Assembly (NCBI GenBank): GCA_965648905.1
Contig: CBFGIT010000007.1
Span: forward strand, 1-64,000
DNA: 64,000 nt
Source: a candidate division WOR-3 bacterium
GTDB lineage: Bacteria; Hydrothermota; Tepidihabitantia; Tepidihabitantales; Tepidihabitantaceae
Direction of reading: 5' to 3'
The notes under the pieces were generated by a model. It made no database searches and was not told where the DNA came from. It worked only from the letters and a program-made list of their open reading frames with translations. The position numbers and the translations under genes were made by a program. Shown piece after piece: positions 2,669-63,760 of the stretch (its first letter is position 1; every line of letters begins with the position of its first letter).

Positions 2669-2980
2669 GTCTCCCTTGCCACTTGGAGCGCGGCTTTGGT
2701 CGTCGCCGAGAGAGCGGCTTGGCCGGCCCTAATCCCAGTCGCTCGGGCCGGCGACGGCCCTGGCGCTCTCCTTGCCGAGACCTCTGCCCCCGCGCCCGTC
2801 GCTCCGTTCCTGGCTCGGCTCCTGGCCGGCTGCGTCGCTCCGACCTGCGCTCGGGCCTAGGTTCTGGCCGTGGTTCTGGCCGTGGTTGGCACCGCCGCTT
2901 GCCTCGTTGCTTCAGACGCAGCGCCGCACTACGCCGGCCTCAGCGCGGGCCAATGTGCTTTGCCTGTAGCTTGACTGACT
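2669..2980. repeat. Degenerate 12-bp periodic array (26 units)
   Basis: Cut into 12-mers from 2669, 23 of 26 units start with G and 12 with GCT; includes exact GTTCTGGCCGTG x2. Confidence 0.8.
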
Positions 2981-3135
2981 CCAGGTCGAGCCATTCGCCC
3001 GCAGCCGGGCCCGGACCACGAGCAGCGGTCTGGGTCTGTCAGGTCAACAATAGTCGGGCGTTGGTCCGCGGGGTCAGCACCGGCGTGACAGCCTGATGCG
3101 ATGGAAGACTTCGCCGCCGCCGTCAGGGTCTGCTT

Positions 3136-4899
3136 TCACTCGAACACCACCTTGGCGACTCGGCAGTCTGCGTCGGCCTGTAGCCGCAGGAAGAGGACGC
3201 CGGACGGTGGACGGGGACGGAGCGGAACTGAATAGGAGCCGGGCTGGTGCGGACCGGACGCCAGTTCAGACATGACACGGCCGGTGGCGTCGACCAGAGT
3301 CAGACTGACATCTGAGGCCACCGGTACGTCGTAGCGGACGAACGCGCGCTCACCGATGGGGTTCTGGCTGACTGAGAGGGACCAGTTGGCCGGAGTCGGG
3401 ACCGGCGCCTCGCAGGCTCCCACCGGCGCAATCTGGAAAGCCCGGTATGACTCGTCAAACTGCCAGCCGGGACCGTAGGCGATGGCCAGAATCTTGGCCC
3501 AGGCCAACGTCATTTCCGGCACGACCCATAGGTAGCTCGACTCAGTCGGGGCCAAGCCCGTGACAATCGTGTCCAGTCGCCAGAACCACTCACCAGTCGG
3601 CACGATTGTATCGGTCAACAGGAACAGCGACACCGAGTCGCATCGGGGCGGAGAAAGCACCTGCCAGCGTATCTCGCAAGTGTCGCCTGAGCGAAGGAAG
3701 TGGTTCGTGTCCGGGCTAAGCACCCGGATGCACTCGACTTCGAGCACAATGCTCGTCGGGTCTCCGGCGACGTAGATTTCCTTATACCCGTTGTGGTTGA
3801 AGTCCGCCGCGTTGCAGACGCTGACCGACCCGCTGGCCATGCGCCAGTTGCTGACTTTCTCATACTCGTGCGGCCCGACCGCCTCTAGAATCAGCACCCG
3901 GCGTCCGCAACTCCAGACGATTTCCTCAAGGCTGTCTCCATCAACGTCCGCGCAAAGACTCATACCGTCGTCATAGTCATAGCCGTACGCTGTATCCACC
4001 GTGTCGCAGTAGTATTGATGCTCGGCCGTCGCTTCAAACTGGCGAAGCGCATGCAGGCGCCGCATCCCACCCAGCGGTACGTGGGCGCTCTCAAAGAACT
4101 CGAGCCTGCCGTTTCGGTCCACATCCTGTCCGGAGAACCGGTCATAGGGAATACCCTCCCAGTCCACGGCCAACGAGCAGACCAACAGATACCGGTTGTC
4201 GCCCACACATTCGATAACGTACTCCTGGTCTCGGTACAAGTTCCTGAACGTGTACTCCACCCGGCCGTTCCGGTCGAAGTCGCCTATGGTCGGAAACCAG
4301 TGTGCAAAAGCACCCCAGGTCACGCACACGAGGCTGCACCGGTTGTCGCCCGTGCACTCAAAGACAGCGGAAGACTCTTCTGTCCACGACGAGACGATGT
4401 CCACAGCCGAATCCCCGTCGAGGTCGGCGTACTGCGCAGGAAGGAAGGCTCCGTGCGGAACGGGGTATGTCGTCCGCCAAACCAGCGAATCAGGATAGGA
4501 GTGCACATCGCGGCTCTCAAAGATGCCCAGCCCTTCACGAAATTGCCCTGCACTGTCACGGTAGGGTGCCTGCCCCGCGACGTCGGTCAAGCCATCGTTG
4601 TCAACGTCACCGACCGTAAGCAGGTCGAGGTTTCCAAGGTAGATGGTCTCTGAGAGCGGCCAGTGAGAGCTGTCGGAGAAGACTAAGAGGTAGCGGTTGA
4701 CGGGCTGGTACTTCGCAATCTGGAAGCCCGCGGAGTTAGTGACGGCAACCTCGCCATACCCGTCGTGGTCCAGGTCCGAGAGCTGCAGCCTTGGGAAGGA
4801 GTAGCAGGGTGCGACTGGCAACGTTGACACCTGCTTCAGTCCCAATTGGGTAGCAGCACTCAGGGTCACCGTCACCGACAGTAGGTTCATCACTCGCAT
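3136..4899 (-). CDS. Secreted FG-GAP/VCBS repeat protein with C-terminal T9SS-like sorting domain
   Basis: Multiple D.D.DG..E/D motifs (DLDHDGYGE, DVDNDGLTD, DFNHNGYKE); C-terminal 'NP...YDVP...LVDATGR...SGVLFLRL'. Confidence 0.85.
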   Translation of the reverse strand: MRVMNLLSVTVTLSAATQLGLKQVSTLPVAPCYSFPRLQLSDLDHDGYGEVAVTNSAGFQIAKYQPVNRYLLVFSDSSHWPLSETIYLGNLDLLTVGDVDNDGLTDVAGQAPYRDSAGQFREGLGIFESRDVHSYPDSLVWRTTYPVPHGAFLPAQYADLDGDSAVDIVSSWTEESSAVFECTGDNRCSLVCVTWGAFAHWFPTIGDFDRNGRVEYTFRNLYRDQEYVIECVGDNRYLLVCSLAVDWEGIPYDRFSGQDVDRNGRLEFFESAHVPLGGMRRLHALRQFEATAEHQYYCDTVDTAYGYDYDDGMSLCADVDGDSLEEIVWSCGRRVLILEAVGPHEYEKVSNWRMASGSVSVCNAADFNHNGYKEIYVAGDPTSIVLEVECIRVLSPDTNHFLRSGDTCEIRWQVLSPPRCDSVSLFLLTDTIVPTGEWFWRLDTIVTGLAPTESSYLWVVPEMTLAWAKILAIAYGPGWQFDESYRAFQIAPVGACEAPVPTPANWSLSVSQNPIGERAFVRYDVPVASDVSLTLVDATGRVMSELASGPHQPGSYSVPLRPRPPSGVLFLRLQADADCRVAKVVFE

Positions 4900-4912
4900 G
4901 GCTTTGTCCTGG

Positions 4913-4943
4913 GAAGGGCGGGGAGGAATCCTCCCCGCCCTTC
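4913..4943. terminator. GC-rich hairpin between co-directional genes
   Basis: GAAGGGCGGGGAGGA-A-TCCTCCCCGCCCTTC perfect inverted repeat; no U-tract on the minus strand. Confidence 0.55.
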
Positions 4944-4953
4944 TCTTCGCATC

Positions 4954-6410
4954 CTACTGCGTCAGGACTACCTTGCGAGCCTGGTTGCATCCGTCGTCTG
5001 CGACGCGAACCAGGTACGCACTGGCTGGGACTCGACGCCCGGCATCGTCCAGCCCGTTCCAGCTTACCGCACTCGTCCCGTAGGCAAGAGCACTGGATGC
5101 CAAACTCCGCACGTGTCGGCCGCCTGTGTCGAAGACATCGATGGCGACCCGACGCGGTGCCGAAGCTTCCAGATGAACTGCCGTCCCGGTCTTAGATAGA
5201 GTCACGCCCGTGACCAGGATTCGCACATCACCGTCGTTGTCGCCACTCAGACCAGCATCAAGGCCGTCCAGCGTGCGCCGGTAAGAGCAGTACTGGAACA
5301 GCTTCATTTCGGCCAGCACGGCGTAGTCGCCTACGAGCCTCCGGATATCGAGGTCTACGGCTCCGTCCCTCGCGTACTTGTCGCGTGGGACGTACACGGA
5401 GACTATCTCCGGCACCTCCGGTCGGAACCGGACCTTCTTGACCTGCTGACCGTCAAAGGCGAAGCTCTGCTCCCAGGTGTCCCTGCCGACCTGAAAGAGC
5501 ACAGCCTCAACTCGGTAGTCGTAGTTCGGATTCAGGTAGCACAGCCGGTACTTCAGGCTGTCGCGGCCGAAGTCGACCGAGAAGTCGCGCCAGCGTCGGA
5601 AACCATCCCGGGCACGGCAGTAGCGCGACTTCACCGAGTCGCCGACCCAGGCGTTGTAGTATGCCAGGTCTTGGAAACCACCATCCGGCGGCAGCGGCCA
5701 GAAGAAATCACGATGGAACCGCACCTCGTATGGCGATGGTGAGCCAGGGGCTGTTGCGCTAGTCCAGACATAGGAGAGGATAAGCTCTGGGATCGTTGTC
5801 AGCTCGGCAACGACGCTCGGGTACACCGACATGTAGTCGTCTTGCTGAATCTGACGAGGCCAGAGCTCCTTGAACAGGCAAGCCCAGACGTCCTCGTCTT
5901 GCGGCGGGTTCAGGTCCTGTTGATGCCAGACGCACGCCAAAAGGGTGTACGCAACATAGACGGCTGGCGTCCCAAGAAGCAGGTCGTGTCTTGTCGCCAT
6001 AGACGGCGGTGCAACTGCCTTGTCCGGACACGCCACAAACGTCAGCCACTTGCCTGGTGAAGGGGGCGGGTCTACCTTCAAGGCGGTCAGAACTATCGAA
6101 TCCGGCTCCCGCCAGTAGCTCACCCAGACGTGGTCATCTTCGCACGCGATGCAGGGATTCATACCCGTACCTACGTATTCGGGCGGAGACCAGCTAAGGC
6201 CCTGGTCCGTGGAGTACGAGTAGAGCACGTCGGAAAGAGCATCTCCCTTGTACTGGTAGACGAGGTGAAGCCAGCCGGTTGTGGGGTCCAGCGCCAGGTG
6301 GCGGCCCTGGTTGAATGCGGTGGCGTATTGGGTCTCTGTTGGGAACGACTGTCCAACCACCGCAACAGAAGCCCGACCACTGCGAACATGATACAGATGC
6401 TTCTGACCAT
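4954..6410 (-). pseudogene. Secreted protein with FlgD-like C-terminal domain, frameshifted in the signal peptide
   Basis: AAGGAGG RBS and ATG at 6410 give MVRSICIMFAVVG, but the mature part (ASVAVVGQSFPTETQYATAFNQGRHL...WNGLDDAGRRVPASAYLVRV) is in another frame from about 6372. Confidence 0.65.
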
Positions 6411-6519
6411 GAGAACCTCCTTGATGGTCATGAGAACATCTCTTCGGGAGGGCGGCAAGTTCGTGCGGCGGGCCACCGCTAGGTAGCTCACGCACGCCAG
6501 CAGCCAGGGGGGCACAAAC

Positions 6520-6783
6520 CAGCCCGTCCCCGTGCCGGCTCACTCGCCGTCTTCCCAAGGCCAGTCTAGGCGGGATTCGCCAAACGTCAAGCAAACGCGC
6601 CGTGAGGCGCCGCGGGTGGCGCGGTTGAACCCGGCCTACTCTACACCGCGGGCCGCGACGTCGCCGACCTCTGTCCCGGCCCGACCGACATCCTTCGGTC
6701 TGCCCTGGCGTGCACTTCGTGCGGTGGACGTCTGCCGCAGGGCGCGAGGCGTCCGCGGTCGCCCGGGTTCTGTTTCCGCCGCA
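6520..6783. repeat. Probable degenerate 12-bp periodic array overlapping the GNAT 3' end
   Basis: C at position 5 in 15 of 22 dodecamers, including 10 consecutive (6592-6711). Confidence 0.4.
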
Positions 6784-7232
6784 GCAGCGGCGGCTATCGC
6801 CAGCCGGAAGAAGACCTCGCCGCCGCCGTCAGGGTTTATCTTGTCAATGTACCCGATGCGCTCGAAACCGAGCGCCCGGTGCCAGGCACGACCGAGCCTG
6901 TTCTCTGGGATAGTCGAGCTGTAGAGGAACTTCTCTTTGCGGCGACTGAGCATCCGGCAGATGTACTCAAGCAAGGCGACTGCCACACCCTGCCGCCGTA
7001 CTTCCGGCTCAACCCAAAGCGAGGTGAGAAACGGCGTCTTGCCCCAGAGATACTCGAGCCGGGCCATACCGATGCGGCTGCCACCCAGTTCAGCCACAAA
7101 CACATCGCCCTCGCGAATCATCCGCCGCACGGACCGAACCGGTATCCCCCGGTCACGATGGACGAACGCCAGGTCTGACGCCTTCGCGCATCGGATGCGA
7201 ATGCGCTGTTTTCTGCGAACCGAAGTGGCCAC
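6636..7232 (-). CDS. GNAT family N-acetyltransferase
   Basis: Motif A 'LWVEPEVRRQGVA', 'N..GRAWHRALGF'; start uncertain (GTG 7232 chosen); low-complexity C-terminal tail. Confidence 0.8.
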   Translation of the reverse strand: MATSVRRKQRIRIRCAKASDLAFVHRDRGIPVRSVRRMIREGDVFVAELGGSRIGMARLEYLWGKTPFLTSLWVEPEVRRQGVAVALLEYICRMLSRRKEKFLYSSTIPENRLGRAWHRALGFERIGYIDKINPDGGGEVFFRLAIAAAAAAETEPGRPRTPRALRQTSTARSARQGRPKDVGRAGTEVGDVAARGVE

Positions 7233-7248
7233 CGCCGGTAAGAGCTGG

Positions 7249-8649
7249 TCAGGTAGTGAGCTGGAGCCGACCGAAACGGGCCGCAAGCGGGCCGTAGAAG
7301 CCATTGCGATGCTGGTCTTCGCGGGAATAGTGCACATCGGCCAGCGCCGCAAACCAGTTGCCGACAAGAAGTCCGCCCTTGAACGGCGTGACACCATCAT
7401 GGCCGCGGACCTCGCCGAGCCGGACTTCACAGGCAAAGTCGCCTGAAGTTGAGTCAACTTCCCACGATGAGAACGCGTGCACTACCAGGCAGTCACCTGA
7501 GCAGAGTTCGTCAACCGTCCGCGTTCCCGGCGGGATGACCGTGTTGCCGATTGTCCCCGGCGGCTCGACACCCTGTGCCAGCAGGCCCAGATAATGGAAG
7601 TAACGCTGACTCCCAAGCAGACGGTCGAAACACCCGTTGGTAGCAAGCGCGGCACGGCGGCAAGGCGTACCGTCGACGTCTGAGACAACCGCGCTGCGCA
7701 GCCCGAACGGAACAAGCGGGTCGGAAACAAGGTTGAGCGGCTCGCCCCTGAGCGACTCGACGCCGGTAACAGGCCGGCCCGGGACGTAGCGGGCCGACTT
7801 CTCGTAGACCATACGTGCACTGGAGTGGAACGCAAGCGGAGTACGCTCGATTTCAAAGGCGTCGGCCATTGCCTCGCCCCGGAGCACGACCGGACCATTC
7901 CATGACCGCGGGGCGCGCGCCAACGCAACCTTGCCGGCCGCGACTGCATACTCGTCAACGACTCGTTCGACTTCAATGTCACTGAGCCGACGCGCACTGA
8001 GCCTCATGGTAAGTTCGCCGGCACGCTCCTCATCCGGACGGGCAAGCAGACAGACCTCAGCGTCGACCCGGGTGGTCGGGAAGGTGACACTGATGCCGGT
8101 GCTACTCTCGAAACGGCATCTGTGGCGTCGGATGAACAGTTCGAGGTTCGAAACTGCGACCCTATCATGCCGGGCTGCAGCCGCGATGATTTTCTCATTG
8201 AGCTCCTGCGCCCGGCTCAGGAGTTCGTTCCATCCCAGGTCGGCAAGTTCCGGGTCAACCAAAGCCGGGCATACCACCCCGCTCCGGTCTGGTTCAGGGA
8301 GCGGGAACGGCCGGTTGCGCTGGTTTCGGGCCGCCTCGACGAGTTCTGCCGTGACCTTCTTGACCACAACCTCTTCGCCGGACAGCACCTGGCCGGTAGC
8401 ATCGCCGAGCCACTCGCTGCCGTCGGCATCAAAGCGGGAATAGACTGTCAGGTGCAGGGTCTCTCCGGGTGAAATGATGACCTCGCGCGGAGCCGGATTC
8501 GGAAACGATGTCAGCCGGCCGGCCTCAATCGAGTAGATGCGCGGCAGGCGGATGACGGTTATCGCGTCGGTCACCACATGCCTCAGGAACCAGCCGGAAA
8601 CGCCGCCCAGCCCGGCCAGATGACGCTTGACCTTGTCAAGCGCAATCAT
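7249..8649 (-). CDS. TldE/PmbA-like metallopeptidase partner subunit
   Basis: 'DVDGTP', 'VDSTSGDFA', 'GGLLVGN' PmbA-type motifs, no HExxxH; follows tldD; start uncertain. Confidence 0.75.
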   Translation of the reverse strand: MIALDKVKRHLAGLGGVSGWFLRHVVTDAITVIRLPRIYSIEAGRLTSFPNPAPREVIISPGETLHLTVYSRFDADGSEWLGDATGQVLSGEEVVVKKVTAELVEAARNQRNRPFPLPEPDRSGVVCPALVDPELADLGWNELLSRAQELNEKIIAAAARHDRVAVSNLELFIRRHRCRFESSTGISVTFPTTRVDAEVCLLARPDEERAGELTMRLSARRLSDIEVERVVDEYAVAAGKVALARAPRSWNGPVVLRGEAMADAFEIERTPLAFHSSARMVYEKSARYVPGRPVTGVESLRGEPLNLVSDPLVPFGLRSAVVSDVDGTPCRRAALATNGCFDRLLGSQRYFHYLGLLAQGVEPPGTIGNTVIPPGTRTVDELCSGDCLVVHAFSSWEVDSTSGDFACEVRLGEVRGHDGVTPFKGGLLVGNWFAALADVHYSREDQHRNGFYGPLAARFGRLQLTT

Positions 8650-8660
8650 CTGCCTCGGCA

Positions 8661-8681
8661 CTTTGCGCTCTGCATTCTGCA
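8661..8681. repeat. Short heptamer tract between tldD and tldE
   Basis: CTTTGCG CTCTGCA TTCTGCA. Confidence 0.4.
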
Positions 8682-8693
8682 TTGCCTCGATCC

Positions 8694-10127
8694 CTACCCC
8701 AGCCTCATCCGGCAGCGGATGAAAGGTCCGCCGGTCGCGCTCCGCACCAATTCCTTGTGACCCTTGCCGCACAAGCCGGCCGACTCGAGATTCAACTCAG
8801 TGCCGACGCGGTCAACACTGGTAAGCACGTCCGGTACGTACCCGGTCGCGCCAATCTGGTAGTACAGCCGGCCGGTCAGGCGGCCGCGCTCGATTTCCCG
8901 GCCGCGAACAATCTGGAGTTGAACCCCCCAGCCCAACGGATCCTCCATGCCCGAGATGAGCTGTTCAAGAAGAATGCCGCGGTCGGTGTCGGCAATCATC
9001 TGGTCGCGCGTCAGACCGCCAAGCTCAGGCGGCCGAGGCTCGAAATACGTATTGGTCATGCGCGCGTAGATTGGATGGTCCCATGATTCAAGCCGTCCTG
9101 ATGCCGACTGCTTCAGTCCGGGCAGCCGGTCTTTCATCGCCAGGAACGAATACCGGTCGCACATCATCGTCGGTTGGAGGATGCCGTTGCGTACCAGCAC
9201 GATCGGTTCTTCGGCCAGCACCCCGTCGTCGGAGAAAAAGACCGAGCCGTTGCATCCTGGTCGTCCCGGGAAGTCGACGATGTTCACCAGGTCCGAGCCG
9301 ACCCGCCGGCCGATGTAGTGAAGCGCCCGCGCTGCGCCGCGCATCATCGTGTCCAGCTCGCAGCCGTGACCGAATGATTCGTGGGCCAGGGTTCCGGCGA
9401 GGTTCGGGTCGAGAATAACGACATGCTCGCCGGGCGGCACGCGGCCCGCCGACAGATGGGCGATTGCTTGTTCGGCCGTCTCCTTGGCCCAGGCAGTCGT
9501 GGCACGGTCTGCGACCTCGTGGCCGTTCCCGGACAGCAGCGCGAAGTTGCTGACCTGGCGATTCTGTTGACCGGCAAAGACCCAGACCGCGAGCACGACC
9601 AGGCTGATATCCGAGGAGAGTAGTTGTCTGCCGTCGCAGAACAGTCGGGACTCGCGTTCCCACCGGTACGCCACCTGAGCCGAAGTGATGCGCGGGTCAA
9701 TCCCCATCAGCCCTTCGTAGACCTGCTCGCACGTTGCCTTACGGACCAGCACGTCATAGTCGGCCGGAGGCTTTGCGCCGACCGAGACAGAGTGCCGGTC
9801 GGCAGCCGGCCCTGATTCCGGCACTGGCCCTGGCCTCACCTTGACCGACCGGGCCAGCTCGCGTATCAGCCTGACCAGTTCGTCCCGGTCCTCAAGCCGA
9901 TTGGTGGCCAGCGAGTGGAACGTTGCACCGTCCCAGACCGAAATCCGCATCCCCTGATCGGGTGCCAGCGGGTTCACCCGCTCATCACTCGTTGCCTTGA
10001 CGACAACCTGTCCCTGCCGGCTCGTCACCAGCACACTCGCATAAGGGATACTCCGACGCGCTTCGGCCACCAGTTCGGGCAGCAAAGACCGCAGCCGGGA
10101 CAGGTCCGGAGGCAGGTTGTGGCTCAT
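8694..10127 (-). CDS. tldD: TldD family metalloprotease
   Basis: 'HESFGHGCE', 'ARMTNTY', 'GLCGKG' motifs. Confidence 0.9.
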   Translation of the reverse strand: MSHNLPPDLSRLRSLLPELVAEARRSIPYASVLVTSRQGQVVVKATSDERVNPLAPDQGMRISVWDGATFHSLATNRLEDRDELVRLIRELARSVKVRPGPVPESGPAADRHSVSVGAKPPADYDVLVRKATCEQVYEGLMGIDPRITSAQVAYRWERESRLFCDGRQLLSSDISLVVLAVWVFAGQQNRQVSNFALLSGNGHEVADRATTAWAKETAEQAIAHLSAGRVPPGEHVVILDPNLAGTLAHESFGHGCELDTMMRGAARALHYIGRRVGSDLVNIVDFPGRPGCNGSVFFSDDGVLAEEPIVLVRNGILQPTMMCDRYSFLAMKDRLPGLKQSASGRLESWDHPIYARMTNTYFEPRPPELGGLTRDQMIADTDRGILLEQLISGMEDPLGWGVQLQIVRGREIERGRLTGRLYYQIGATGYVPDVLTSVDRVGTELNLESAGLCGKGHKELVRSATGGPFIRCRMRLG

Positions 10128-10134
10128 CGACAAC

Positions 10135-10641: not shown

Positions 10642-10674
10642 AACGCGCTCCGGTCGGTCAACTCCCCTGTCCGG

Positions 10675-11784: not shown

Positions 11785-11790
11785 CGGCCA

Positions 11791-11818
11791 ATTATATCAC
11801 GGCCGGCCCGCGAATCAA
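11791..11818 (-). promoter_or_regulatory. Promoter, probably leaderless
   Basis: TTGATT-N16-TATAAT, 6 nt before ATG 11784, no SD. Confidence 0.7.
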
Positions 11819-11829
11819 ACAGCACTTCC

Positions 11830-12260
11830 ATGAAAGGGTGATACTGGCCCAACTGGTCGGCCGCCGGCACGCCAAGCCGGGTGAGCGGATTAAAGCACGG
11901 ACCGGCTACCGGAACGGCAGCCACAAGCGGCAGTCGCTGACGACGTTCGGTCGGTCTTCCTAGCCGGGGCGAGCACGCGGGAGGCGGCGCGGGTGCTCGG
12001 GGAACTGCTGGACAAGAGACTGAGTCCGAGCACGGTATCGGAGATCAACAAGCTGACGGACGACAAGGTGCGACGGTTTTGGACCCGGCGGCTCGTTGAC
12101 CGGTGGCGGTTCTTGATGTTTGACGGGGTCTGGGTGAAGGTGCGGACGACGAATGTGATTGAGCGGCTGTTCCGGGAATTACTCAAGCGGATACGACCGA
12201 TGTGCACGTTTGCGGACGGCGCGATCTGTGACCGACTGGTCTATGCGCTGTTCATGAAGA
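11830..12260 (+). mobile_element. IS256-family transposase remnant, internally deleted
   Basis: Fragments 'RTGYRNG...LTTFG', 'LAGASTR...LSPSTVS', 'DGVWVKVR' fused to 'TTNVIERLFRE..KRIRPM..F'. Confidence 0.8.
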
Positions 12261-12316
12261 CCAAGCAGAGTCAGCCACTTGTGTCAAGGGCAGGTAACCC
12301 CGGGTTATCCCCCGAA

Positions 12317-12628
12317 CCATTGGATAGGCCGGCCGGCCTGCCCACAAAACCGGCCTCTGCTCGGTCCAACAGAGCGCCCTTCATTGCCGGCTGAGGTTTG
12401 CGCTTTGGCCGCCCACTGAACCGGGCCTCACTCGGCACTTCGCACTGTCCCTCGGCGGAGAAGAGAGACCGGCCTTCGGCAGCGGCGCGAAACCGGGGTG
12501 GACTGAATCCTCTGGATGGCGCAAGGCTATGTCCTTAGGGCCAGCCTTGCCCGAGTCCTTAAGAAAGCAGAGCAGAATCAGCCGGCACGCTGCTCGCCCG
12601 CGCCCTCAACCTTCGGCCGCTCGCCGGC
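12317..12628. repeat. Degenerate 12-bp periodic array
   Basis: C at position 2 in 12 of the first 15 units; CCT begins units at 12473, 12509, 12533, 12545 and 12557, all in one phase. Confidence 0.55.
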
Positions 12629-12703
12629 GGAGACCCCGAAGACGCGTAGCGTCGCCAGTAGAGTCAGCACCGAGCTATTGACACGGCCAGTCAACGCGGC
12701 ATC

Positions 12704-12758: not shown

Positions 12759-12831
12759 GGGGCTGTAGCTCAGTCGGGAGAGCACCTGCTTTGCAAGCAG
12801 GGGGTCGCCAGTTCGACTCTGGTCAGCTCCA
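12759..12831 (+). tRNA. tRNA-Ala(TGC)
   Basis: GGGGCTGTAGCTCAG...CCTGC-TTTGCAA-GCAGG...GTTCGAC...CAGCTCCA; G3:U70 identity pair; CCA not encoded. Confidence 0.97.
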
Positions 12832-32199: not shown

Positions 32200-32499
32200 C
32201 CCACAAGCAGCGTCCCGAGACTGCCCTTGACTCCGGTGTCGGGAGCGACTCCGGGAATCACTCCCCCTGTCAGGCCTGCGAGCAAGCGCCAAGGCGCGTC
32301 TGCTGCGGGTTCAACCCGCAGTCTGGCCAACGCGCACGCGAACGAGATGCGGGCCACGCAGAATGGCAGGGCGGTCAGCAAACGCTTGAGCAGACGGGGT
32401 TGCAGGTTCGCGGGCGCGCCCAATTACGTGCTGGAATCCGGGCCTGAGGCCGGAACCGAGAACGAGTATCAGAGCAACACCGGAACCGAAACACAAGTC
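32200..32499. repeat. Degenerate 12-bp periodic array
   Basis: From 32248, 20 of 21 dodecamers end in C and all 21 begin with a purine. Confidence 0.8.
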
Positions 32500-32619
32500 A
32501 ATCGCTGTCGATTACCCGGCCGCGGTTGCTGCGCCCTCCCAGGTCGCCAGGAACTGCGGCCCGAGACTCCGGTACTCCACGACACCATCGCCGTGCGGTC
32601 GCCGAGGCAACGCGGACTG

Positions 32620-33230: not shown

Positions 33231-33305
33231 TAGCCCCATGGGGATTTGAACCCCAGTCTTCTGGCTGAGAACCAGATGTCCTGGGCCAGGCTAGACGATG
33301 GGGCC
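33231..33305 (-). tRNA. tRNA-Glu(CTC)
   Basis: GGCCCCATCGTCTAGCCTGGCCCAGGACA-TCTGG-TTCTCAG-CCAGA...GGTTCAAATCC...TGGGGCTA. Confidence 0.95.
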
Positions 33306-40880: not shown

Positions 40881-40908
40881 AAGATGCAGACTGCAGAAGG
40901 CAGAATGT
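40881..40908. repeat. Heptamer tract
   Basis: AAGATGC AGACTGC AGAAGGC AGAATGT (reverse complement of the TTCTGCA type). Confidence 0.5.
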
Positions 40909-40981
40909 CACACTGCCCGGACATTCTGCAAAGCCCGCCGACCTACCGGCACTCCGAAGAACCGCTGGTCTGGCTTCGAGC

Positions 40982-41221
40982 AATGCCTGTGGTTGGGACT
41001 CTTTGGGTGCCGACGGTTGTGCCGGGAACCGGGCAGCACGAAAGCACGGTGGCCGTTCCGACTGGCGTCACAAGGCTCGTGCCGGCAGCAATTCCGAGTC
41101 ACTTGCCGGCTGAGTGCTCTGTTCCAATCCCGCGCGGCATTTCCTCAGAATTGCCCTGACCATGGCATTGAACAAGACCGCTGGTCAGACCGGCAGCAGT
41201 ACCAATGGGAATCCCTTGGGG
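40982..41221. repeat. Degenerate 12-bp periodic array (20 units)
   Basis: C at position 6 in 18 of 20 dodecamers, e.g. ggtgCCgacggt, tgtgCCgggaac, cgttCCgactgg, cgtgCCggcagc. Confidence 0.8.
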
Positions 41222-41412
41222 AACGGCCTGCCGGACGGAAGTCATCCTTGGTCAAAGCCTGCCATCGAAGCGGAGTTTACGGGTCGCAACACACGTAAGA
41301 ACAACTGGTTGGGCCTGCACCTGCCGGCACATTGAACGCCATCTCCCCTGTTGCGCGTTAGATTCTGCGCCCCGGCGGCTCTAATACATTGCTGACGAGA
41401 GAAGAACGGCAC

Positions 41413-54079: not shown

Positions 54080-54084
54080 CGCTT

Positions 54085-54732: not shown

Positions 54733-54737
54733 CCCGG

Positions 54738-56330: not shown

Positions 56331-56332
56331 CG

Positions 56333-57070: not shown

Positions 57071-57939
57071 CACTGCCTCCTCTTCCGGCTGAGGAAAAAG
57101 CCGACGTTGCCCAGAATCACCAGCAGAACAATGGCAAAGTGAGCGAAACTCTGGGCATCCATCGCGTTCAAGGCCGGGGTACCGGCCTGCCTGATATTGG
57201 CCTGAGACAGCAGCACTTCGTACTCAGCCGCACCCTTCATGCCGGCGACAATGCCCAGCAACTGACCGGTGCCCAGATAGGGATACGCGTCCGCGGCCTG
57301 GACCGCGGTCGTGCCGGTTGCCATCTTCGCCCGGTATCGGGACTGCGCGTACAGCAGCCAGTCCGCGTACCCGGGCGTGCCGGCCGACAGCGACACGATG
57401 AACCCGACGTCCGACAGCTTCCTGATGTCGTGCATCATCGGATGTTCTTCAAGGCGCGTGCCGAGTCCGTCCACCGGGAACGTCCGGGCGACGTTCTCGC
57501 CCATGCCGAGAATGACCGCATCGACGCCGGCCTTGTAGCCGAGGAAAACGTAGTCGCGACCGTTCTCCTTGTTGTACTCCTGCGCGGCATCCTGGAGCGC
57601 ACGGCGGCCCAGCCCGACGCCGTTCGGCCAGAGCCCGACGACCAGCACCCTGACGTTGCGGGCGAACGCGTGTCGGATGAGCGCCTTCAGCATCGGCAGC
57701 AGCTCGGCCTGTGAAGCCGGGTCGAAGTCGACCGAGACCAGCAGCGGACGGCCGGTGTACTGCAGGCTGTCAACCTGTTCGTAGACCTGACGGACGCGCT
57801 GCGACACGCCGCCCATCGGCTTGACCGAAAGCCCAAGCGAGAGAATCAAAGGTACAATAATAACCAGGAGCAGAATGACATAGACGATACGTCGGTCAAT
57901 CTGCCCAAGGGTCTGCCAGAAACCGGGTCTGCTCGCCAT
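57070..57939 (-). CDS. Uncharacterised membrane-anchored protein (DUF6754 cluster)
   Basis: GGAGGAGG and ATG 57939; TM - soluble domain ('DF.P....EL.P', 'G.DYV.LGY', 'G.KGAAEYE') - TM. Confidence 0.8.
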   Translation of the reverse strand: MASRPGFWQTLGQIDRRIVYVILLLVIIVPLILSLGLSVKPMGGVSQRVRQVYEQVDSLQYTGRPLLVSVDFDPASQAELLPMLKALIRHAFARNVRVLVVGLWPNGVGLGRRALQDAAQEYNKENGRDYVFLGYKAGVDAVILGMGENVARTFPVDGLGTRLEEHPMMHDIRKLSDVGFIVSLSAGTPGYADWLLYAQSRYRAKMATGTTAVQAADAYPYLGTGQLLGIVAGMKGAAEYEVLLSQANIRQAGTPALNAMDAQSFAHFAIVLLVILGNVGFFLSRKRRQ

Positions 57940-57940
57940 G

Positions 57941-58582
57941 TTACTTACCTCCTCCTCCACCCAGCCAGCCGCGCTCGATGCCGAGGATGATCTTGAGCGA
58001 GGTAGCGATGCTGCCCAGGGCCACGCCGAAAGTGATGCCGCGCTTGGCCGCCATGTTCGGCACCTCGAGCAGGTACCGCGACCACTGCGGGAACCGGTCC
58101 CAGATGACCTTGCCGAGCGGGACGCTGCCCAGCATCACCATGAAGGCCGCAACCAGCAGGATGGTCGCTTCGCGGTTGCGTGCCCGGAACGCGCGGTAGC
58201 TGGCCGAGGCGATGTAGAACGCGAGGATGGCGAACATTGATGCTCCGAGCGGCACCTGGACGTTAGCGTAGATGACGTTGATGAGCAACTGCTTGTTGTT
58301 CATCATTGTCGGCCCCGCGGCCCAGCCGATAATCGTCGTGGCCGCCAGTGCCACCAGGGTCACAATCGAATAGCCCCAGCCCGGGCTCTTACGCTGGAGC
58401 CTCGTGACATGATGGATTATCAGACTGCCCGCGCCCAGCACCAGCGCAAACCCGCTCACGAGCCGCACCCAGGTGTTGATTGTCTCGAGGAACGCCCGCG
58501 AGAAGGGATGCGGGGAGAAGAACTGGACCATCATCAGGACACCGGCAATCAGACAGATAGTCAGGGGAAGGTTTCTTCTCAT
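57941..58582 (-). CDS. Uncharacterised polytopic membrane protein (DUF6754 cluster)
   Basis: About 6 TM segments; 'P..A.MF..LAF.IASA.YRAFR.R', 'P..A..R.I..G..LG'. Confidence 0.8.
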
Positions 58583-58591
58583 CGTTGCTCC

Positions 58592-59746
58592 CTACGTGTT
58601 GAGGATGGTGAAGGCGAAGCTCAACCAGCCCAGCCCCTTGACCGCGCTGAGCAGGTATAGCGCCGAGCAGACCGCCAGCACGACGATGATGACCAGCTTG
58701 CCGTAGTCCTGTCCCACGAGCGAACCCAGGAGCAGCGGCTCGCGCGACAGGTAAGCCGAGGCAGCGTAGAGTTCCTCGCCAATCAAAGTGTAGTCGCACG
58801 CGGTAATGAAGAACGGCAACTGGTAGATGGCATCAGTTCCGGCAATCTGAATCGCCCCGGTGGTCGAGCCGGTTTCGGCAAGAATCAGCGACTCGGCCGC
58901 GAACCAGCCGAGCATGAAATTGGTCGCCGGCTTCTCCCGCACCATGATGCCATCGACCGCGGCCGCATAAGCGAACTGCTCCGAGGTGATGTAGTAGATG
59001 TTATCGGGCTTGAAGGTGTCGGGACGGCCGACCTTGGCGTGGGCCTCTTTCACCATCTCGCGGGCAATCGTGTAAACCACCGGGTCTGAATTAGGCACGA
59101 CCAGGGTCGTATCGTACTGGGCGGTCTTCTTGGCAATCTCGCCAAGGATGTTCATCGATGCGATGGTTGATATCTGGGCCGCGGAACCGATGCCGGGAAT
59201 GAAGACGATCGGCTTGCCCATTTCGGTCGCCCGGCCGACCGACTCCTCAACCGCGTCCAGACCGGCGATGCGGCGGACAAACAGGTTCCGCCCCTTACGC
59301 GCGTGACTGATGAAGTAGAGGATGATTGCGAAGAACACGACGATGGCCACAAAGATGTTGGCAAGACGCAGATCCAGCCACTGCGCCTTCGGACTCACCT
59401 CCGCGGTCGGCTCGCTCCAGGCGGTGTCTGCGCCCCGAACCGCGCCGACCCGATATCGATAGCGGTTGCCGCTCGCCACGTTCTCGTCGGTAAAGGCCCG
59501 CTCGTCCGGGCCAGCCGTGCCGGCCAGTTCCGGCGTGCCATCGGGTCCGGTGCGCTCAACAACAAAGGCTTCGACCGGCCCTGGGCCCGGTGCGCTCCAA
59601 ACAAGCTCGAGACTCTTGCCCTGGTCATTGGGCGTGTCAAACGCCCGCAGCGCGGTCGGCGCCGCAAGCGGCGGCCCGGGCGGCGACGAATCGGCTACCG
59701 GCGGAGCCTGGGCAACAAGCGACAAGACGATGAGCAGTGATATCAT
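58592..59746 (-). CDS. FN3 domain plus DUF6754 membrane protein
   Basis: Signal peptide, 'DTPND.G....L.W...Y.YRV.AV', TM, 'RRIAGLDA.EE.VGRATEMG.P', 'CDY.LIGEE.YAA.AYLS'. Confidence 0.85.
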   Translation of the reverse strand: MISLLIVLSLVAQAPPVADSSPPGPPLAAPTALRAFDTPNDQGKSLELVWSAPGPGPVEAFVVERTGPDGTPELAGTAGPDERAFTDENVASGNRYRYRVGAVRGADTAWSEPTAEVSPKAQWLDLRLANIFVAIVVFFAIILYFISHARKGRNLFVRRIAGLDAVEESVGRATEMGKPIVFIPGIGSAAQISTIASMNILGEIAKKTAQYDTTLVVPNSDPVVYTIAREMVKEAHAKVGRPDTFKPDNIYYITSEQFAYAAAVDGIMVREKPATNFMLGWFAAESLILAETGSTTGAIQIAGTDAIYQLPFFITACDYTLIGEELYAASAYLSREPLLLGSLVGQDYGKLVIIVVLAVCSALYLLSAVKGLGWLSFAFTILNT

Positions 59747-59749
59747 TGA

Positions 59750-60127
59750 CTAACTGCCTCCTTTGCTGGTGCTCTTTCCGGCATCAGCGGACGAGCGAAC
59801 CAGAGGTTCAGGGCATGAGCAGGGCGTTGAGCCGCACTTAGGACAGCCGCGGGCGTACTTCTCGGCCACACTGGCCAGGTCAATCCCTTCAAGGGAAGCC
59901 AGCGACGCAAGCCACGCGAACACGTCGGCGAACTCCTCTTCCAGATTTGCCCGATTGCCATTTCGCAGTGCCCGGGCCAGTTCGCCGGTTTCCTCGACCA
60001 GCCAGCGGAACGTGCCGTCGCGGCCGCGACCGCAGTCCTTGTCGAAGTAGATGGCGCGGATGAGCTGCTGAAAATCACGCACGGTCAAGGCTGAATCAGC
60101 ACGCGGCGGAAGTGGCTCTTTGGACAC
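59750..60127 (-). CDS. MazG-like NTP pyrophosphohydrolase with C-terminal Cys cluster
   Basis: 'WLVEE.GELA', 'EEFADV.AWL', 'KY..GCP.C...PC.C'. Confidence 0.88.
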   Translation of the reverse strand: MSKEPLPPRADSALTVRDFQQLIRAIYFDKDCGRGRDGTFRWLVEETGELARALRNGNRANLEEEFADVFAWLASLASLEGIDLASVAEKYARGCPKCGSTPCSCPEPLVRSSADAGKSTSKGGS

Positions 60128-60133
60128 GTGCTG

Positions 60134-60161
60134 AGTATCGCGAAAAAGCCCGGCCAGTCAA
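60134..60161 (-). promoter_or_regulatory. Promoter of the mazG-DUF6754 operon, probably leaderless
   Basis: TTGACT-N16-GATACT, 6 nt before GTG 60127. Confidence 0.6.
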
Positions 60162-60225
60162 GCACCGCCACTCGCTCCAGGGCCGTCGTAGACTCAACAG
60201 CCGAGCCCGCAACACGGCCGGACGC

Positions 60226-60260
60226 AAGTCAGGAGTCCGAAGGATAAGGTCAGAAGTCAA
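60226..60260. repeat. Heptamer tract
   Basis: AAGTCAG GAGTCCG AAGGATA AGGTCAG AAGTCAA. Confidence 0.45.
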
Positions 60261-60382
60261 AGGGGCGTTCTTCGTGCCCTGGTGGCCCAATCTCGGACTC
60301 ACTCACGCACGGATGGCGCATGTCGATTCCGTATGCTATACTGGGTATCCGCCGTGGAACGAATAACCACAGGAGTAACCAG

Positions 60383-63004
60383 ATGACCGGAAGATACCTG
60401 TCCGTGGTCGTGCTGCTCGTCGCCGCGGCCGTGGCTGCGCCCAAACTGGCGCTGCCGGCATCGGCGACCGGACCCATGACCATCAGCCTTGTCCAAGGCT
60501 ACCGATTCGACCCGCTTGAACGGCTGCCCGAACTCCCGCCACAACTTGCCGCCGACGGCTACGGTGGCGAGTACGGCTACTACATCGTCCAGTTCCCCGG
60601 GCCGATACGGCCGGAATGGAAGGCCGCCGCCGAGCGCGCCGGTGCCGACCTGCTTTGGTACCTGCCCAACTACGCCTTCATCGCCCGCATCGCCAACGCT
60701 CAGGCATCGGCCGTGGCCGAGCTGCCCGAGGTCCGCTGGCTGGGCCTGTACCAACCCGCCTACAAGCTGCTGCCCGGGCTCGACCAGGCCCGCGGCCGGC
60801 TCTCGCTCATCGTCGTCTTCTTCAAAGCCGAAGACCAGTACCGGCTGCTCGACCAGCTTGCCGATTTGGGTGCGCAGAACATCACGCCCGAGTTCAACCC
60901 GTGGAACAACTCGGTCAGGCTCGACATTGACGCGGGTCGCATCGCCGACATCGCCCGCCTGCCCGGCGTCTACTGGCTCGAAACCTGGGGCGAGATTACC
61001 CCGGACAACGCCAACGCGCAGTGGGTCGACATGCACGGCTATTCCGCCAGTGACACGTCCCGCACCATCTGGGCCCGGGGCGTAACCGGCTCGTCGGTCT
61101 ACGTCGGGCTCACCGACCAGCAGCTCTGGCACAGCCACGACCTGTTCCGCGACCCCTCGAACAACACGCCCAGCCCGACTCACCGCAAGGTCATCCACTA
61201 CTTCGGCACCCAGGGCTCGGCCAGCCACGGCACCCACACCTCGGGTACGCTGTGCGGCAACGACGGGCCGGTCGGCGGCACGTCCCTCCACGACGGTCTG
61301 GCCAAGGACTCGCGCCTGTACTTCCAGTACTACAGCGCCTTCCCCACCAACTGGGATATGAACGTCTGGTTTGCCGGTCCGGAATCGAGCGTTGCCGGTC
61401 TGCGTGCGTTCAACCACTCGATGTCTCTCTCTCGCAAGGATACCTACAATATCTACGTCTTCTCGGACATGACCGCGGACCAGTTCGTCTGGAACCATCG
61501 CCAGTTCCTGCACTGCAACTCGATGGGCAACCTGACCACGAACCAGATGGGCCACCCGGTCATCGCCAAGAACATCATCTCGACCGGCGGCACCCAAAAC
61601 GGCACGCTCTGCCGCAGCATCTACACTTCGACCTCGCGCGGCCCGACCGCGGACGGTCGGAGAAAGCCGCAACTGGTGTCCCCCGCGGACGGCGTCTACT
61701 CGGCGTCAAACACCAATGCCTCAGGCTACGTCTCGATGTCCGGCACCTCGATGGCCACGCCCAACATGACCGGTTCGATGGCGCTTATCCGAGACTACTT
61801 CAGGAAGGGCTTCTACCCCACCGGCGACACCCTGACCGGCACGCCGATGGAAATCTCCGCCGCGCTGAACAAGACGGTCGGGATTGTCGGCGCGGACAAC
61901 GATATCTCGGGTTACACCGTGCCCGACAACAACATCGGCTGGGGACGGGTCGACCTTGACTCATCGCTCTACTTCGCGGGCGACCAGTCGAAGCTCTGGG
62001 TGATGGACGACACGGTCGGGCTTGCGACCGGCGACTCCGCGGTCTTCACCCTGAACGTCACGGGCGACTCGCGGCCGTTCCGCGTCGCCCTGTGCTGGTC
62101 CGACTACCCGGGCACGATGCAGGCCGCGCTCATCCTCGTCAACGACCTGAACCTCACCGTCATATCGCCCACCGGCACCGAGTACAAGGGCAACGTCTGG
62201 TCCGGCGGCCAGTCCCAGGCCGGCGGTATCTACGACACCCTGAACGTCGAAGAGTGCTTCCGCCTGGACCGACCGGAACTCGGTGAGTGGAAGGTGAAGG
62301 TCAAGGCGCGCAATGTCCCGCAAGGCCCGCAGCCCTTTGCCCTTGCCGCCATCGGCATGTTCCAGACCGCACCGCCGCCCGCCCATGACGTCGGTGTCAC
62401 GGCCATACTGGTGCCCTCGGACACGAACTACATCGGCGACAGCCTCGAACCCAGGGCCATCATCCGCAACTTCGGTTCAAACAGCGAGACCTTCGACGTC
62501 TGGTTCTGGGTCGGCAACAGCTACTCCGACCGCCGTAACATAACGGTGTCGGCAGGCGAGGTTGACACGGTCGACTTTGCCGAGTGGTACGCGGATTCGC
62601 TCGGCGAGTTCGAGACCCGCTGCTCCACCGCGCTCGCGGGCGACGAGAACCCGGCCAATGACCAGCGTACCGGCACCGTGCTCGTCCTGCCCGGCACCGG
62701 CGTTGAGGAAGGGCTCAAGCGGCCGGGCGCGTTCGCTCTGCACAGACCGCTGCCCAACCCGTTCAGCCGGGCGACCGAGGCGAGCTACTCGCTTGCCCGG
62801 CCCGGTTTCGTCAGCCTGTCGGTCTATTCCGCGGCCGGTACGCTCGTGCGCCGACTGGTCCGCACTGCGGCTGATGCCGGCTCCTACTCAGCGACCTGGA
62901 ATGGCAGCGACTCAGACGGCCGCATGGTCAGCGCCGGGTTCTACATCCTGCGGCTTGAGGCCGGTTCCCGCGCCGCCACGCAGAAACTCGTGCTGCAGCG
63001 GTAG
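60383..63004 (+). CDS. Secreted S8 subtilisin-like serine protease with CARDB-like and FlgD-like C-terminal domains
   Basis: AGGAG and ATG; triad 'GLTD', 'HGTHTSG', 'SGTSMATP'; 'LVNDLNL'; C-terminal 'PNPF...WNG.D..GR.VSAG.Y.LRL'. Confidence 0.93.
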   Translation: MTGRYLSVVVLLVAAAVAAPKLALPASATGPMTISLVQGYRFDPLERLPELPPQLAADGYGGEYGYYIVQFPGPIRPEWKAAAERAGADLLWYLPNYAFIARIANAQASAVAELPEVRWLGLYQPAYKLLPGLDQARGRLSLIVVFFKAEDQYRLLDQLADLGAQNITPEFNPWNNSVRLDIDAGRIADIARLPGVYWLETWGEITPDNANAQWVDMHGYSASDTSRTIWARGVTGSSVYVGLTDQQLWHSHDLFRDPSNNTPSPTHRKVIHYFGTQGSASHGTHTSGTLCGNDGPVGGTSLHDGLAKDSRLYFQYYSAFPTNWDMNVWFAGPESSVAGLRAFNHSMSLSRKDTYNIYVFSDMTADQFVWNHRQFLHCNSMGNLTTNQMGHPVIAKNIISTGGTQNGTLCRSIYTSTSRGPTADGRRKPQLVSPADGVYSASNTNASGYVSMSGTSMATPNMTGSMALIRDYFRKGFYPTGDTLTGTPMEISAALNKTVGIVGADNDISGYTVPDNNIGWGRVDLDSSLYFAGDQSKLWVMDDTVGLATGDSAVFTLNVTGDSRPFRVALCWSDYPGTMQAALILVNDLNLTVISPTGTEYKGNVWSGGQSQAGGIYDTLNVEECFRLDRPELGEWKVKVKARNVPQGPQPFALAAIGMFQTAPPPAHDVGVTAILVPSDTNYIGDSLEPRAIIRNFGSNSETFDVWFWVGNSYSDRRNITVSAGEVDTVDFAEWYADSLGEFETRCSTALAGDENPANDQRTGTVLVLPGTGVEEGLKRPGAFALHRPLPNPFSRATEASYSLARPGFVSLSVYSAAGTLVRRLVRTAADAGSYSATWNGSDSDGRMVSAGFYILRLEAGSRAATQKLVLQR

Positions 63005-63025
63005 TCGAGCAAACCCGTTCATCGT

Positions 63026-63053
63026 GCAGGGGCGCGGGCAACCGCGCCCCTGC
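63026..63053 (+). terminator. Intrinsic terminator-like hairpin
   Basis: GCAGGGGCGCGG-GCAA-CCGCGCCCCTGC followed by CTTGT. Confidence 0.7.
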
Positions 63054-63419
63054 CTTGTCCTGCTCGCTCCCGCCGGCTCCAACTCAAGCCCTAGTTCCGA
63101 CATTGCGGTGTGAACTGGAGTGAAGAAGAGAGGCTGACTTGCTTCAGTCATCGGCGTCTAACGAGTACGCTAATACTTCACCCGTCAGGTGACATGAAAG
63201 GCAGCCAGGTACTTAGGCGCAGTGTAACCCAGGAACGGCTCGATTTCCAGATTGCGCCAATCTCCGATACTACCACCAGTCGGGCAGGTCTGGCCCTGTC
63301 TTCAGAGAGCCGCGCTGGCACTGGGTGTCCGCAGGAGCCATCTTGGCAGTCGATTCTCACTCTGCCTTCGGCCTTTGTCCGCACTCCTGCCTCCTTTCGT
63401 CTCTTCTGCACCTCTGCCA

Positions 63420-63468
63420 TTCTGCACTCTGCAATCTGTATTCTGCCTTCTGCATTCTACCTTCGTCC
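63420..63468. repeat. Heptamer tandem repeat (7 units)
   Basis: TTCTGCA CTCTGCA ATCTGTA TTCTGCC TTCTGCA TTCTACC TTCGTCC. Confidence 0.85.
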
Positions 63469-63508
63469 TACCATATGACCATCCCCTGGCTGGTAAGGGG
63501 GACGGTTC

Positions 63509-63760
63509 CCCTTTCGGAACCCCCTGCCCCGACCCCGGCCGAAACCCATTGGGCAGCCCCAGGCGAAGCGGTTACGCCTTCCCCTGCCCCAGTCCTTTCG
63601 GCAACCCCTGTGCCTGCCGCCGCCCCGGGGGGTTCGGCGGCCCGCGCCCAGGCCCGATGCGTTCGCGGGTCCCAGACCCGGACCCAGCCCGGTGCCGACC
63701 CCCCTGCCCATCCGCCCGCGCCTCCCCTTGCCCAAACCACCGCAGCACCCCTCAGCCCGG
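63509..63760. repeat. Degenerate 12-bp periodic array (21 units)
   Basis: 13 of 21 dodecamers start with CCC; CCCCTGCCC recurs in phase at 63521, 63581 and 63701. Confidence 0.8.

Follow-up and report, generated by a model that had tools for sequence, protein, structure and literature searches.

What keeps stretches of intergenic DNA in a strict 12-nucleotide (nt) phase when only a few of their bases are conserved? This question is raised by a stretch of 64,000 nt, hereafter the window, which comprises positions 1 to 64,000 of contig CBFGIT010000007.1 (C7) in the assembly GCA_965648905.1 of a candidate division WOR-3 bacterium, a genome of 3.01 Mb in 60 contigs with about 62% G+C. The original prediction, made from the letters of the window alone, described six such phased regions and offered two explanations: an enzyme or mobile element that adds error-prone 12-nt duplications, or selection for phased protein binding. 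Here, we report that five of the six regions belong to a genome-wide class of arrays phased at 12 base pairs (bp), and that the genome encodes a family of proteins resembling the major capsid proteins (MCPs) of the virus realm Adnaviria, whose members are filamentous viruses of archaea. The reading that we favour, and to which the comparison of sequences gives roughly an even chance, takes the arrays as phased tracks on which these capsid-like proteins dock and which were dispersed by transposition.

The lag autocorrelation of the six regions was scored against dinucleotide shuffles. At lag 12, z was 6.8 in 2669-2980, 5.1 in 32200-32499, 3.9 in 40982-41221 and 4.7 in 63509-63760, whereas lags 3, 9 and 15 stayed flat (z from -2.4 to +1.6 across all six regions); at lag 6, z rose to 3.1 in 63509-63760 and to 2.5 in 32200-32499. 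We also scanned the whole genome, blind to these coordinates, in 240-nt windows with a nested likelihood-ratio G-test that sets a period-12 composition model against the period-3 model nested within it. At p<1e-6, 1141 of 249,746 windows were significant for period 12, against none for periods 9 and 10, two each for periods 11 and 13, and four for period 15; period 6 gave 455 windows and period 14 gave 103, which we take to reflect heptamer repeats. The 12-nt periodicity is real, specific to 12 and genome-wide. Significant windows at p<1e-5 merge into 129 arrays, six of which begin at the first base of their contig (C6:1, C25:1, C29:1, C36:1, C39:1 and C50:1); the repeats thus break the assembly, and 129 is a lower bound. 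A general 24-nt super-period was rejected, as only 15 of the 129 arrays show one at p<0.05 and three at p<0.01.

Inside the window, the scan recovered exactly the five firm regions of the original prediction, including 12317-12628, the weakest of the five (lag-12 z only 1.1, lag-24 z 3.3, G 85.7). The candidate sixth region, 6520-6783, falls away: lags 12 and 24 gave z values of 0.6 and 0.4, the genome scan missed it, and it overlaps the coding open reading frames (ORFs) 4954-6594 and 6636-7457. The refined bounds of the five arrays, none of which is assigned a strand, are as follows.

2677..2976, array 1, about 25 units, family A (14 copies), unit approximately GCTCGGnCCGTC
12313..12564, array 2, 21 units, a 6-copy family (66-73% identity to the window copy), 195 bp from a tRNA-Ala gene
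32257..32508, array 3, 21 units, a 4-copy family
40957..41220, array 4, 22 units, family C (18 copies), unit approximately TGCCGnnnGnnn
63493..63756, array 5, 22 units, family B (11 copies), unit approximately CCCnTGCCCnnn, GC skew about -0.27

These bounds give 21-25 units per array, in keeping with the 20-26 that had been predicted, and the accompanying description is borne out as well: few columns are conserved per unit, the unit consensus varies between the arrays of the window, and neighbouring units may be alike, with identical adjacent units at 2861-2884. What does not survive is the picture of one-off sequences, since each of the five is a member of a multi-copy family. Across the genome, iterative refinement gave a median length of 21 units (10th-90th percentile 19-23; 11 of 129 arrays above 24), and BLAST clustering placed 87 of the 129 arrays in 13 families of 18, 14, 11, 11, 10, 6, 4 and 3 copies and five pairs, leaving 42 singletons. 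A near-palindromic cap motif, GGGRACNGNYYC (at most one mismatch), stands at one end of 84 of the 129 arrays, compared with 149 of 2000 random windows, and is common to different array families. With its YCCC half facing the array, the motif gives every array a polarity in the order leader, motif, array. Strand skews are strong in some families (a GC skew of about -0.3 in family B and an AT skew of about -0.6 in family A) and differ in sign and kind between families. When 20 other genomes of the taxonomic family were searched, family A was absent from all of them, the same genus included, and family B was full-length in the present genome only, with one 84% copy in another genus; from this restriction, the families look like lineage-specific amplifications. 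The arrays are best explained as non-coding, cis-acting elements in which it is the 12-bp register and a length of about 21-23 units that are conserved, not the sequence.

The original prediction had also proposed to look for a gene whose presence tracks the arrays, and a capsid-like family is a candidate. Searching six-frame ORFs with jackhmmer yielded 14 ORFs homologous to Adnaviria MCPs; none of them lies on the window part of contig C7, so that all five window arrays are orphans. Pfam family PF12193 gives three sub-threshold matches in the genome; for the capsid-like family, it scores 24.9 bits, just below the cut-off of 25.2. A 33-member profile compared with the PDB matched the coat proteins of SIRV2 (3j9x, E 2.7e-7, query residues 2-105) and SSRV1 (6wq0, 4.1e-7) and entry 6d5f (2.2e-5); its top seven matches were all Adnaviria coat proteins, and an 11-paralogue profile behaved similarly. 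An AlphaFold model of an array-linked paralogue is a helical bundle (predicted local distance difference test score, pLDDT, 90), for which the top five Foldseek matches were coat proteins of AFV1, SIRV2 and SSRV1 (probability 0.97-1.00, template-modelling score 0.56-0.65, E only 0.04-0.4). In profile and in predicted fold, the capsid-like proteins resemble Adnaviria MCPs over nearly their full length. According to two published accounts, the capsomers of AFV1 and SIRV2, which are MCP dimers, each wrap 12 bp of A-form DNA (PMC5517147; ICTV profile PMC12282232). Within the portions of the Adnaviria literature at hand, no bacterial or cellular homologue is named.

Database searches returned 94 homologues at E<=1e-5, all annotated as 'hypothetical protein' except for one Joint Genome Institute label (ABC-type amino-acid-binding protein), which looks like a mis-annotation. 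The named homologues come mostly from candidate division WOR-3, and none carries a precomputed Pfam domain; a pattern-based scan of limited reach found no relative in viral contigs. Single family members occur in records labelled Dehalococcoidales, Latescibacterota and Freyarchaeota, the last an archaeon (L158, L167 and P0086), and either transfer or mis-binning could account for them; at the Latescibacterota locus, a strong array lies 1.1 kb upstream. Within the present genome, the paralogues C1:182463-182840, C10:73281-73691 and C52:2428-2835 have an identical 34-residue C-terminus, and the otherwise different C21:28878-29237 has nearly the same C-terminal tail; the common tail suggests recent gene conversion or a chimeric gene.

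The capsid-like genes and the arrays are adjacent at six loci, which account for seven of the 14 capsid-like ORFs: an array at p<2e-6 lies directly upstream, always on the 5' side of the gene. These gene-linked arrays span families B, D, 8 and 11 and one singleton. The one on contig C10 belongs to family B, as does window array 5, and the order there on the gene strand is array, capsid-like gene, extracytoplasmic function (ECF)-type sigma factor, HPr-domain protein, a 111-amino-acid (aa) protein of no family, and a second capsid-like gene. The capsid-like ORF C10:75384-75830 adjoins array C10:76009-76272, and C15:52884-53250 adjoins array C15:53425-53664.

Both the genes and the arrays extend to related genomes. 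The gene family was present in all 34 other genomes of the same order and in none of 166 genomes from other orders of the phylum. Six genomes of each kind were sampled for windows with G>=80, with the following counts.

Gene-bearing genomes: G024 4, G101 1, G036 3, G010 0, G061 9, G181 1; 18 in 1.157 Mb
Gene-lacking genomes: G147 0, G017 0, G076 0, G096 0, G149 0, G002 3; 3 in 1.012 Mb

The single windows of G101 and G181 lie inside long ORFs, and of the three in G002, one falls on a perfect 72-nt tandem repeat, one on a further long-period repeat and one in a 392-aa ORF. Arrays of the kind described here were found only in gene-bearing genomes, in three of the six sampled. In relatives of lower G+C, the units are AT-rich, with anchors such as CTATT and TAAT, and are still 12 bp long. 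Among 28 capsid-like loci of other genomes, seven have a strong array within 3 kb, all seven upstream and none downstream; this sample was drawn from genome contigs with the closer alignment A3 and represents mainly an array-poor subfamily. A near-perfect 72-nt tandem repeat of about 6-7 copies at L140:1900-2400 in G002, a genome without the capsid-like family, is open in three frames and is a false positive of the period-12 scan.

The variability among dispersed copies was compared between high- and low-information unit phases in four testable families. It was lower at the high-information phases in family 0 (0.189 vs 0.244, p 0.014), family 1 (0.111 vs 0.166, p 0.017) and family 4 (0.059 vs 0.124, p 0.0004), and the anchors are better conserved than other positions in three of the four. 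The original prediction had seen no indels; indels of whole units are present. In pairwise BLAST alignments, 23 of 353 gaps inside arrays are of exactly 12 nt, whereas none of 262 gaps in the flanks is. Over the segment aligned to 2669-2932, nine family-A copies measure 264 nt and two measure 276 nt, and there is one copy each of 288, 252 and 261 nt. An indel count from multiple sequence alignments, in which five of 42 'core' events were multiples of 12, is noisy because the detection bounds overrun the arrays, and the indel counts used here rest on the pairwise analysis in its place. In the same-genus genome G086, the flanks of the array 4 locus are on different contigs, one of which ends 80 bp from the expected array, and the array 1 locus shows no synteny.

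How at least one family of arrays spread can be read from family B, whose copy in the window contains array 5.

63089..63937, plus strand, family-B element, 849 bp, resembling a miniature inverted-repeat transposable element (MITE), contains array 5, copies 87-97% identical
63089-63105 and 63921-63937, imperfect 17-nt inverted ends, CCCTAGTTCCGACATTG and CAATATCGGGATTGGGG, respectively

The end sequence of the element is CCCYARTYCCGAYATTG, and inverted end pairs occur in six contigs, 661-866 bp apart. Flanking direct repeats of 5 bp are exact in three of the six complete copies (ACCAG, CATGG and TGCCT) and near-exact in two, including the window copy (TCAAG/CCAAG); one copy is without them. 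One family-B copy is an internal-deletion derivative, and no transposase is carried by the family-B element. Family B bears the hallmarks of a MITE, and the inverted ends and 5-bp target duplications show that mobile elements carry whole arrays around the genome. The first explanation of the original prediction is not supported in the form given: mobile elements are involved in a different role, as carriers of complete arrays (63089-63937), and ordinary slippage would explain the unit indels. With regard to an autonomous partner with the same ends, 24 end-like sites were seen, none of them paired at transposon length in this 60-contig assembly, which is broken by repeats. A search for inverted ends at the other four window arrays gave none that was convincing.

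The second explanation, selection for phased protein binding, is the one that we favour, on circumstantial grounds drawn from sequence: the period of the arrays equals the 12 bp held by one MCP dimer, the genome encodes 14 homologues, six of the capsid-like loci have an array directly upstream, and the anchors are better conserved than other positions in three of four testable families. As we picture it, the near-palindromic junction motif (GGGRAC-N-GNYYC) would be where MCP-like dimers nucleate, and from there they would polymerise over the track with one dimer per 12-bp unit, and the one to five anchor bases in each unit would set the register. Different paralogues may have cognate track families. 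Loci in which a track lies just upstream of a capsid-like gene would be the 'master' loci; one master operon also encodes the ECF sigma factor, so that the coat probably feeds back on that promoter region. The orphans, all five window arrays included, would be copies of leader and track that spread through intergenic DNA, at least one family by transposition, and they would act as extra docking or silencing sites. A more far-reaching version is that, in this order of uncultured WOR-3 bacteria, a domesticated or ancestral form of the capsid of archaeal filamentous viruses serves as a chromosomal DNA-coating system, in which dimers of each paralogue build A-form segments of fixed size on more than 100 tracks, with one track family per paralogue, control by an ECF sigma factor of its own, and MITE-spread tracks that rewire which intergenic regions are coated; this version is tentative, and we regard it as possible and somewhat doubtful.

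Several observations weigh against the docking of capsid-like proteins on the arrays. The binding of viral MCPs is sequence-independent, so that a need for phased anchors is an added assumption, and adjacency could mean only that gene and array share one mobile cassette. About 120 of the 129 arrays are orphans, with no capsid-like gene near any window array. Conversely, no array lies within about 1.5 kb of seven of the 14 capsid-like ORFs, a group that contains the three closest paralogues (C1:182463, C10:73281 and C52:2428). In other genomes, 21 of the 28 loci are without an array; only three of the best-match loci of 29 relatives (L002-L030) have one at G>=80, with one borderline case at 69.6; and G101, G181 and G010 show no non-coding array in 157-200 kb. 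As to constraint, the anchors of family 2 (that is, family B) are not more conserved than other positions (p 0.59, at only 4% divergence), and family 3 stood outside the test with too few usable copies. The estimate of array length is biased toward 20 units by the 240-nt (20-unit) seed window. Finally, pairwise BLAST also placed 235 one-nt gaps inside arrays, most of which we take to be compensating alignment artefacts.

The arrays might also be selfish repeats without host function: tandem repeats within MITE-like or other small mobile elements, with a period that comes from replication slippage of whole units, and with capsid-like genes as mere cargo whose adjacency says nothing about binding. 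We consider this unlikely, although much of what is known of family B (inverted ends, 5-bp target duplications and a deletion derivative) would fit it, as would the placement of 87 of the 129 arrays in 13 multi-copy families, the near-confinement of families A and B to this genome, the several arrays at contig ends, the whole-unit indels, and a fragment of an IS256-type transposase that abuts array 2. Slippage, however, leaves unexplained why 12 bp and about 21 units recur across unrelated families with different unit sequences and in relatives with AT-rich units, why anchors stay conserved after dispersal and why the cap motif persists across families, and family B is the only one among the window arrays with inverted ends. 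The constraint and the cap motif would apply equally if the tracks served some other protein (a transposase, the 111-aa or HPr-like product of the cassette, or a nucleoid protein) and the 12-bp match to the capsid were a coincidence. The C10 cassette indeed encodes an ECF-type sigma factor, an HPr-domain protein and the 111-aa protein as well, and the cap motif contains GGAAC, the core sequence of ECF-type -35 elements. However, a comparison of 37 families and singletons showed no conserved -10-like element at a fixed distance from the motif, so that an ECF-type promoter at the cap motif is unsupported in general, while single families may differ; moreover, the capsid-like family is the only candidate with a known 12-bp step. 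Tracks for a different protein seem to us improbable.

Two further readings would place the function of the arrays in a transcript. If they were transcribed from the leader, they could act as non-coding RNA or as a phased RNA-binding platform, since conserved leaders could hold promoters; the strong strand skews of families B and A and the folding of 35 arrays (mean z -1.2, with 34% at z<-2 on one strand) point the same way. Yet folding in the five window arrays is not better than in shuffled sequence (z -1.6 to +0.7), the skews are inconsistent in sign and kind between families, and a search of the whole window against Rfam 15 at gathering thresholds matched two tRNAs only, which makes an RNA function a long shot. 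A present or recent coding role, in which the arrays would be small and in many cases decayed genes for proteins made of tetrapeptide repeats (Arg-rich ones, for example), is very improbable. A period of 12 equals four codons, and the Arg-rich ORF 2623-3096 (plus strand, 157 codons), which spans array 1 and has a Shine-Dalgarno-like GAGGTGG string before the array, is the strongest point in its favour, even though we judge this ORF to be spurious; in its frame, the would-be third codon positions of family A vary slightly more than the others (0.18 vs 0.13 and 0.13). The period-3 G statistic has a median of 24 in the arrays and 25 in the mostly coding genome, and it cannot separate the two because a 12-nt pattern has a 3-nt harmonic. 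On the other side, each of the six frames is interrupted by stops in several of the 13 copies of family A, and the best contain six and eight stops in total, about what we estimate from base composition alone, and an in-frame TAG is common to four copies. There is no lag-3 signal, families 0 and 4 lack a three-base pattern of variability (the conserved phases of family 4 form one block of five), and no Pfam family matches any ORF over the window arrays. With no frame open in all copies and only the weak third-position pattern of family A, a protein-coding tetrapeptide repeat was rejected. Known repeat classes were likewise rejected, as the original prediction had argued. The unit columns are mostly variable, with no invariant repeat and no spacer structure, which excludes a clustered regularly interspaced short palindromic repeats (CRISPR) array. 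The program Tandem Repeats Finder (TRF) reported only fragments of 2.1-2.8 copies in array 1 and none in arrays 2-5, which excludes a minisatellite or variable-number tandem repeat (VNTR), with units about 70% or more alike.

Other features of the window lie at the borders and in the surroundings of the arrays.

2489..2661, plus strand, family-A leader ('head'), aligned in 13 genome copies at 72-82% identity, about 170 nt conserved
2574-2591, plus strand, palindrome GTTTACACATATTGTAAC in the family-A leader
2662..2675, plus strand, junction motif GGGGACGGTCTCCC at the border of leader and array 1, from a motif search
11993..12394, plus strand, ORF with an IS256/Mutator-family transposase fragment (Pfam PF00872, E 7e-12), abuts array 2
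32255-32266, junction-like motif (reverse complement GGGGAGTGATTC) at the left border of array 3
40884..40907, minus strand, run of the heptamer ATGCAGA (reverse complement of TCTGCAT), 3.4 copies by TRF, left of array 4
41218..41230, plus strand, junction motif GGGGAACGGCCTG at the right border of array 4, followed by about 100 nt of conserved family-C leader
63403..63464, plus strand, repeat of the heptamer TTCTGCA, about 7.6 copies by TRF, inside the family-B element before the junction motif
63498..63511, plus strand, junction motif GGGGACGGTTCCCC, a near-palindrome

Residues 4-52 of the transposase fragment match positions 126-174 of the 379 in the PF00872 profile, and a 134-bp piece of its ORF (12131-12264) recurs in C41 and C14 at 91-92% identity. 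Array 4 is flanked by lgt on the plus strand and, on the minus strand, by the start of the S10 ribosomal operon. Runs of TTCTGCA or its complement adjoin two window arrays and occur also at C14:2621-3823, C49:4858-4992, C3:108189 and C4:103952 of the present genome (G000); one family-B copy is 14 nt, or two heptamers, shorter in the run that corresponds to 63403-63464. BLAST with a 60-nt heptamer stretch alone gave many matches in the taxonomic-family genomes G120, G205 and G206, and the heptamer runs could be a separate protein-binding repeat.

Arrays of two different families are often found in pairs in G000, with starts about 420-610 bp apart (C5:85813/86269, C8:6421/6877, C11:95737/96157, C13:57277/57793 and C49:5773/6385) or about 1 kb apart (C43:13357/14389), and two arrays of the relative G061 are inverted around a stretch of about 320 bp (L126:16800-17580); such pairs might form a composite element. 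Another small palindromic repeat, distinct from these and approximately GAAAACGGGGACTGTCCCCGTTTTC, is at times doubled and has a core that resembles the cap motif of the arrays; a motif search placed it at C4:73215/73246, C4:113904/113935, C6:13094 and C9:83135/83172 of G000. Within the window, a tRNA lies within 725 bp of three of the five arrays (12759-12831, 33231-33305 and just past 63996). Across the genome, ten of the 129 arrays have a tRNA at 600 bp or less, where 300 random trials gave 2.8 on average and 9 at most; targeting to tRNA genes was rejected, since this enrichment is mild and arrays and tRNAs are both intergenic anyway.

Neither such arrays nor bacterial homologues of the Adnaviria capsid came up in a full-text search of the literature, in agreement with the original prediction, which knew of no description of the arrays. 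The nearest known systems each share some of the properties of the arrays. Adnaviria nucleocapsids (SIRV2, SSRV1, AFV1 and SFV1) are built from proteins homologous to the candidates, and their 12 bp per dimer is the array period. Here, however, the genes are chromosomal, bacterial and multi-copy (14 ORFs, with one locus in an ECF sigma operon), and phased tracks of about 250 bp are present at more than 100 sites, whereas the whole viral genome is bound without sequence preference. The ParR-parC iterons of R1 and the omega heptad arrays of pSM19035 are bound cooperatively by small dimers. There, too, short tandem direct repeats set the register of a helical protein-DNA filament, often upstream of its own gene, but the repeats are conserved in sequence, few per replicon, made of 7-11-bp or 20-bp units and bound by ribbon-helix-helix proteins, whereas the 129 arrays of this genome keep no more than the phase and one to five bases, and the protein fold is different. 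Like bacterial MITEs of the Correia, ERIC and Nezha type, family B is short, multi-copy and intergenic, with imperfect inverted ends, a 5-bp duplication and no transposase; unlike them, it contains a phased array of 22 units together with a cap motif and a run of heptamers, and no inverted ends were seen in the other array families. In the plant En/Spm (CACTA) transposons, subterminal 12-bp TnpA motifs are likewise repeated in a transposable element as a protein platform, but these are eukaryotic, with a conserved motif, irregular spacing and both orientations, in contrast to the exact spacing and degenerate motif of the arrays. Finally, CRISPR arrays and VNTRs are also tandem and intergenic with a fixed unit size, but the present arrays have no invariant repeat or spacers, and the divergence of their units defeats TRF.

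Arrays of this kind escape ordinary repeat finders, gene callers and RNA-family scans. If the more far-reaching version, a chromosomal coating system, is correct, the Adnaviria capsid would have in these proteins its first relatives from cells and from bacteria, and the arrays would be a new class of cis element defined by phase, not by sequence. A multi-copy family on bacterial chromosomes, together with a cis element of 12-bp step, would bear on the origin of the capsid of that virus realm. It would also add a mode of marking DNA in which recognition is by register and length and the sequence is almost free, and small transposons would here be seen moving a ready-made, putative protein-docking module around the genome.

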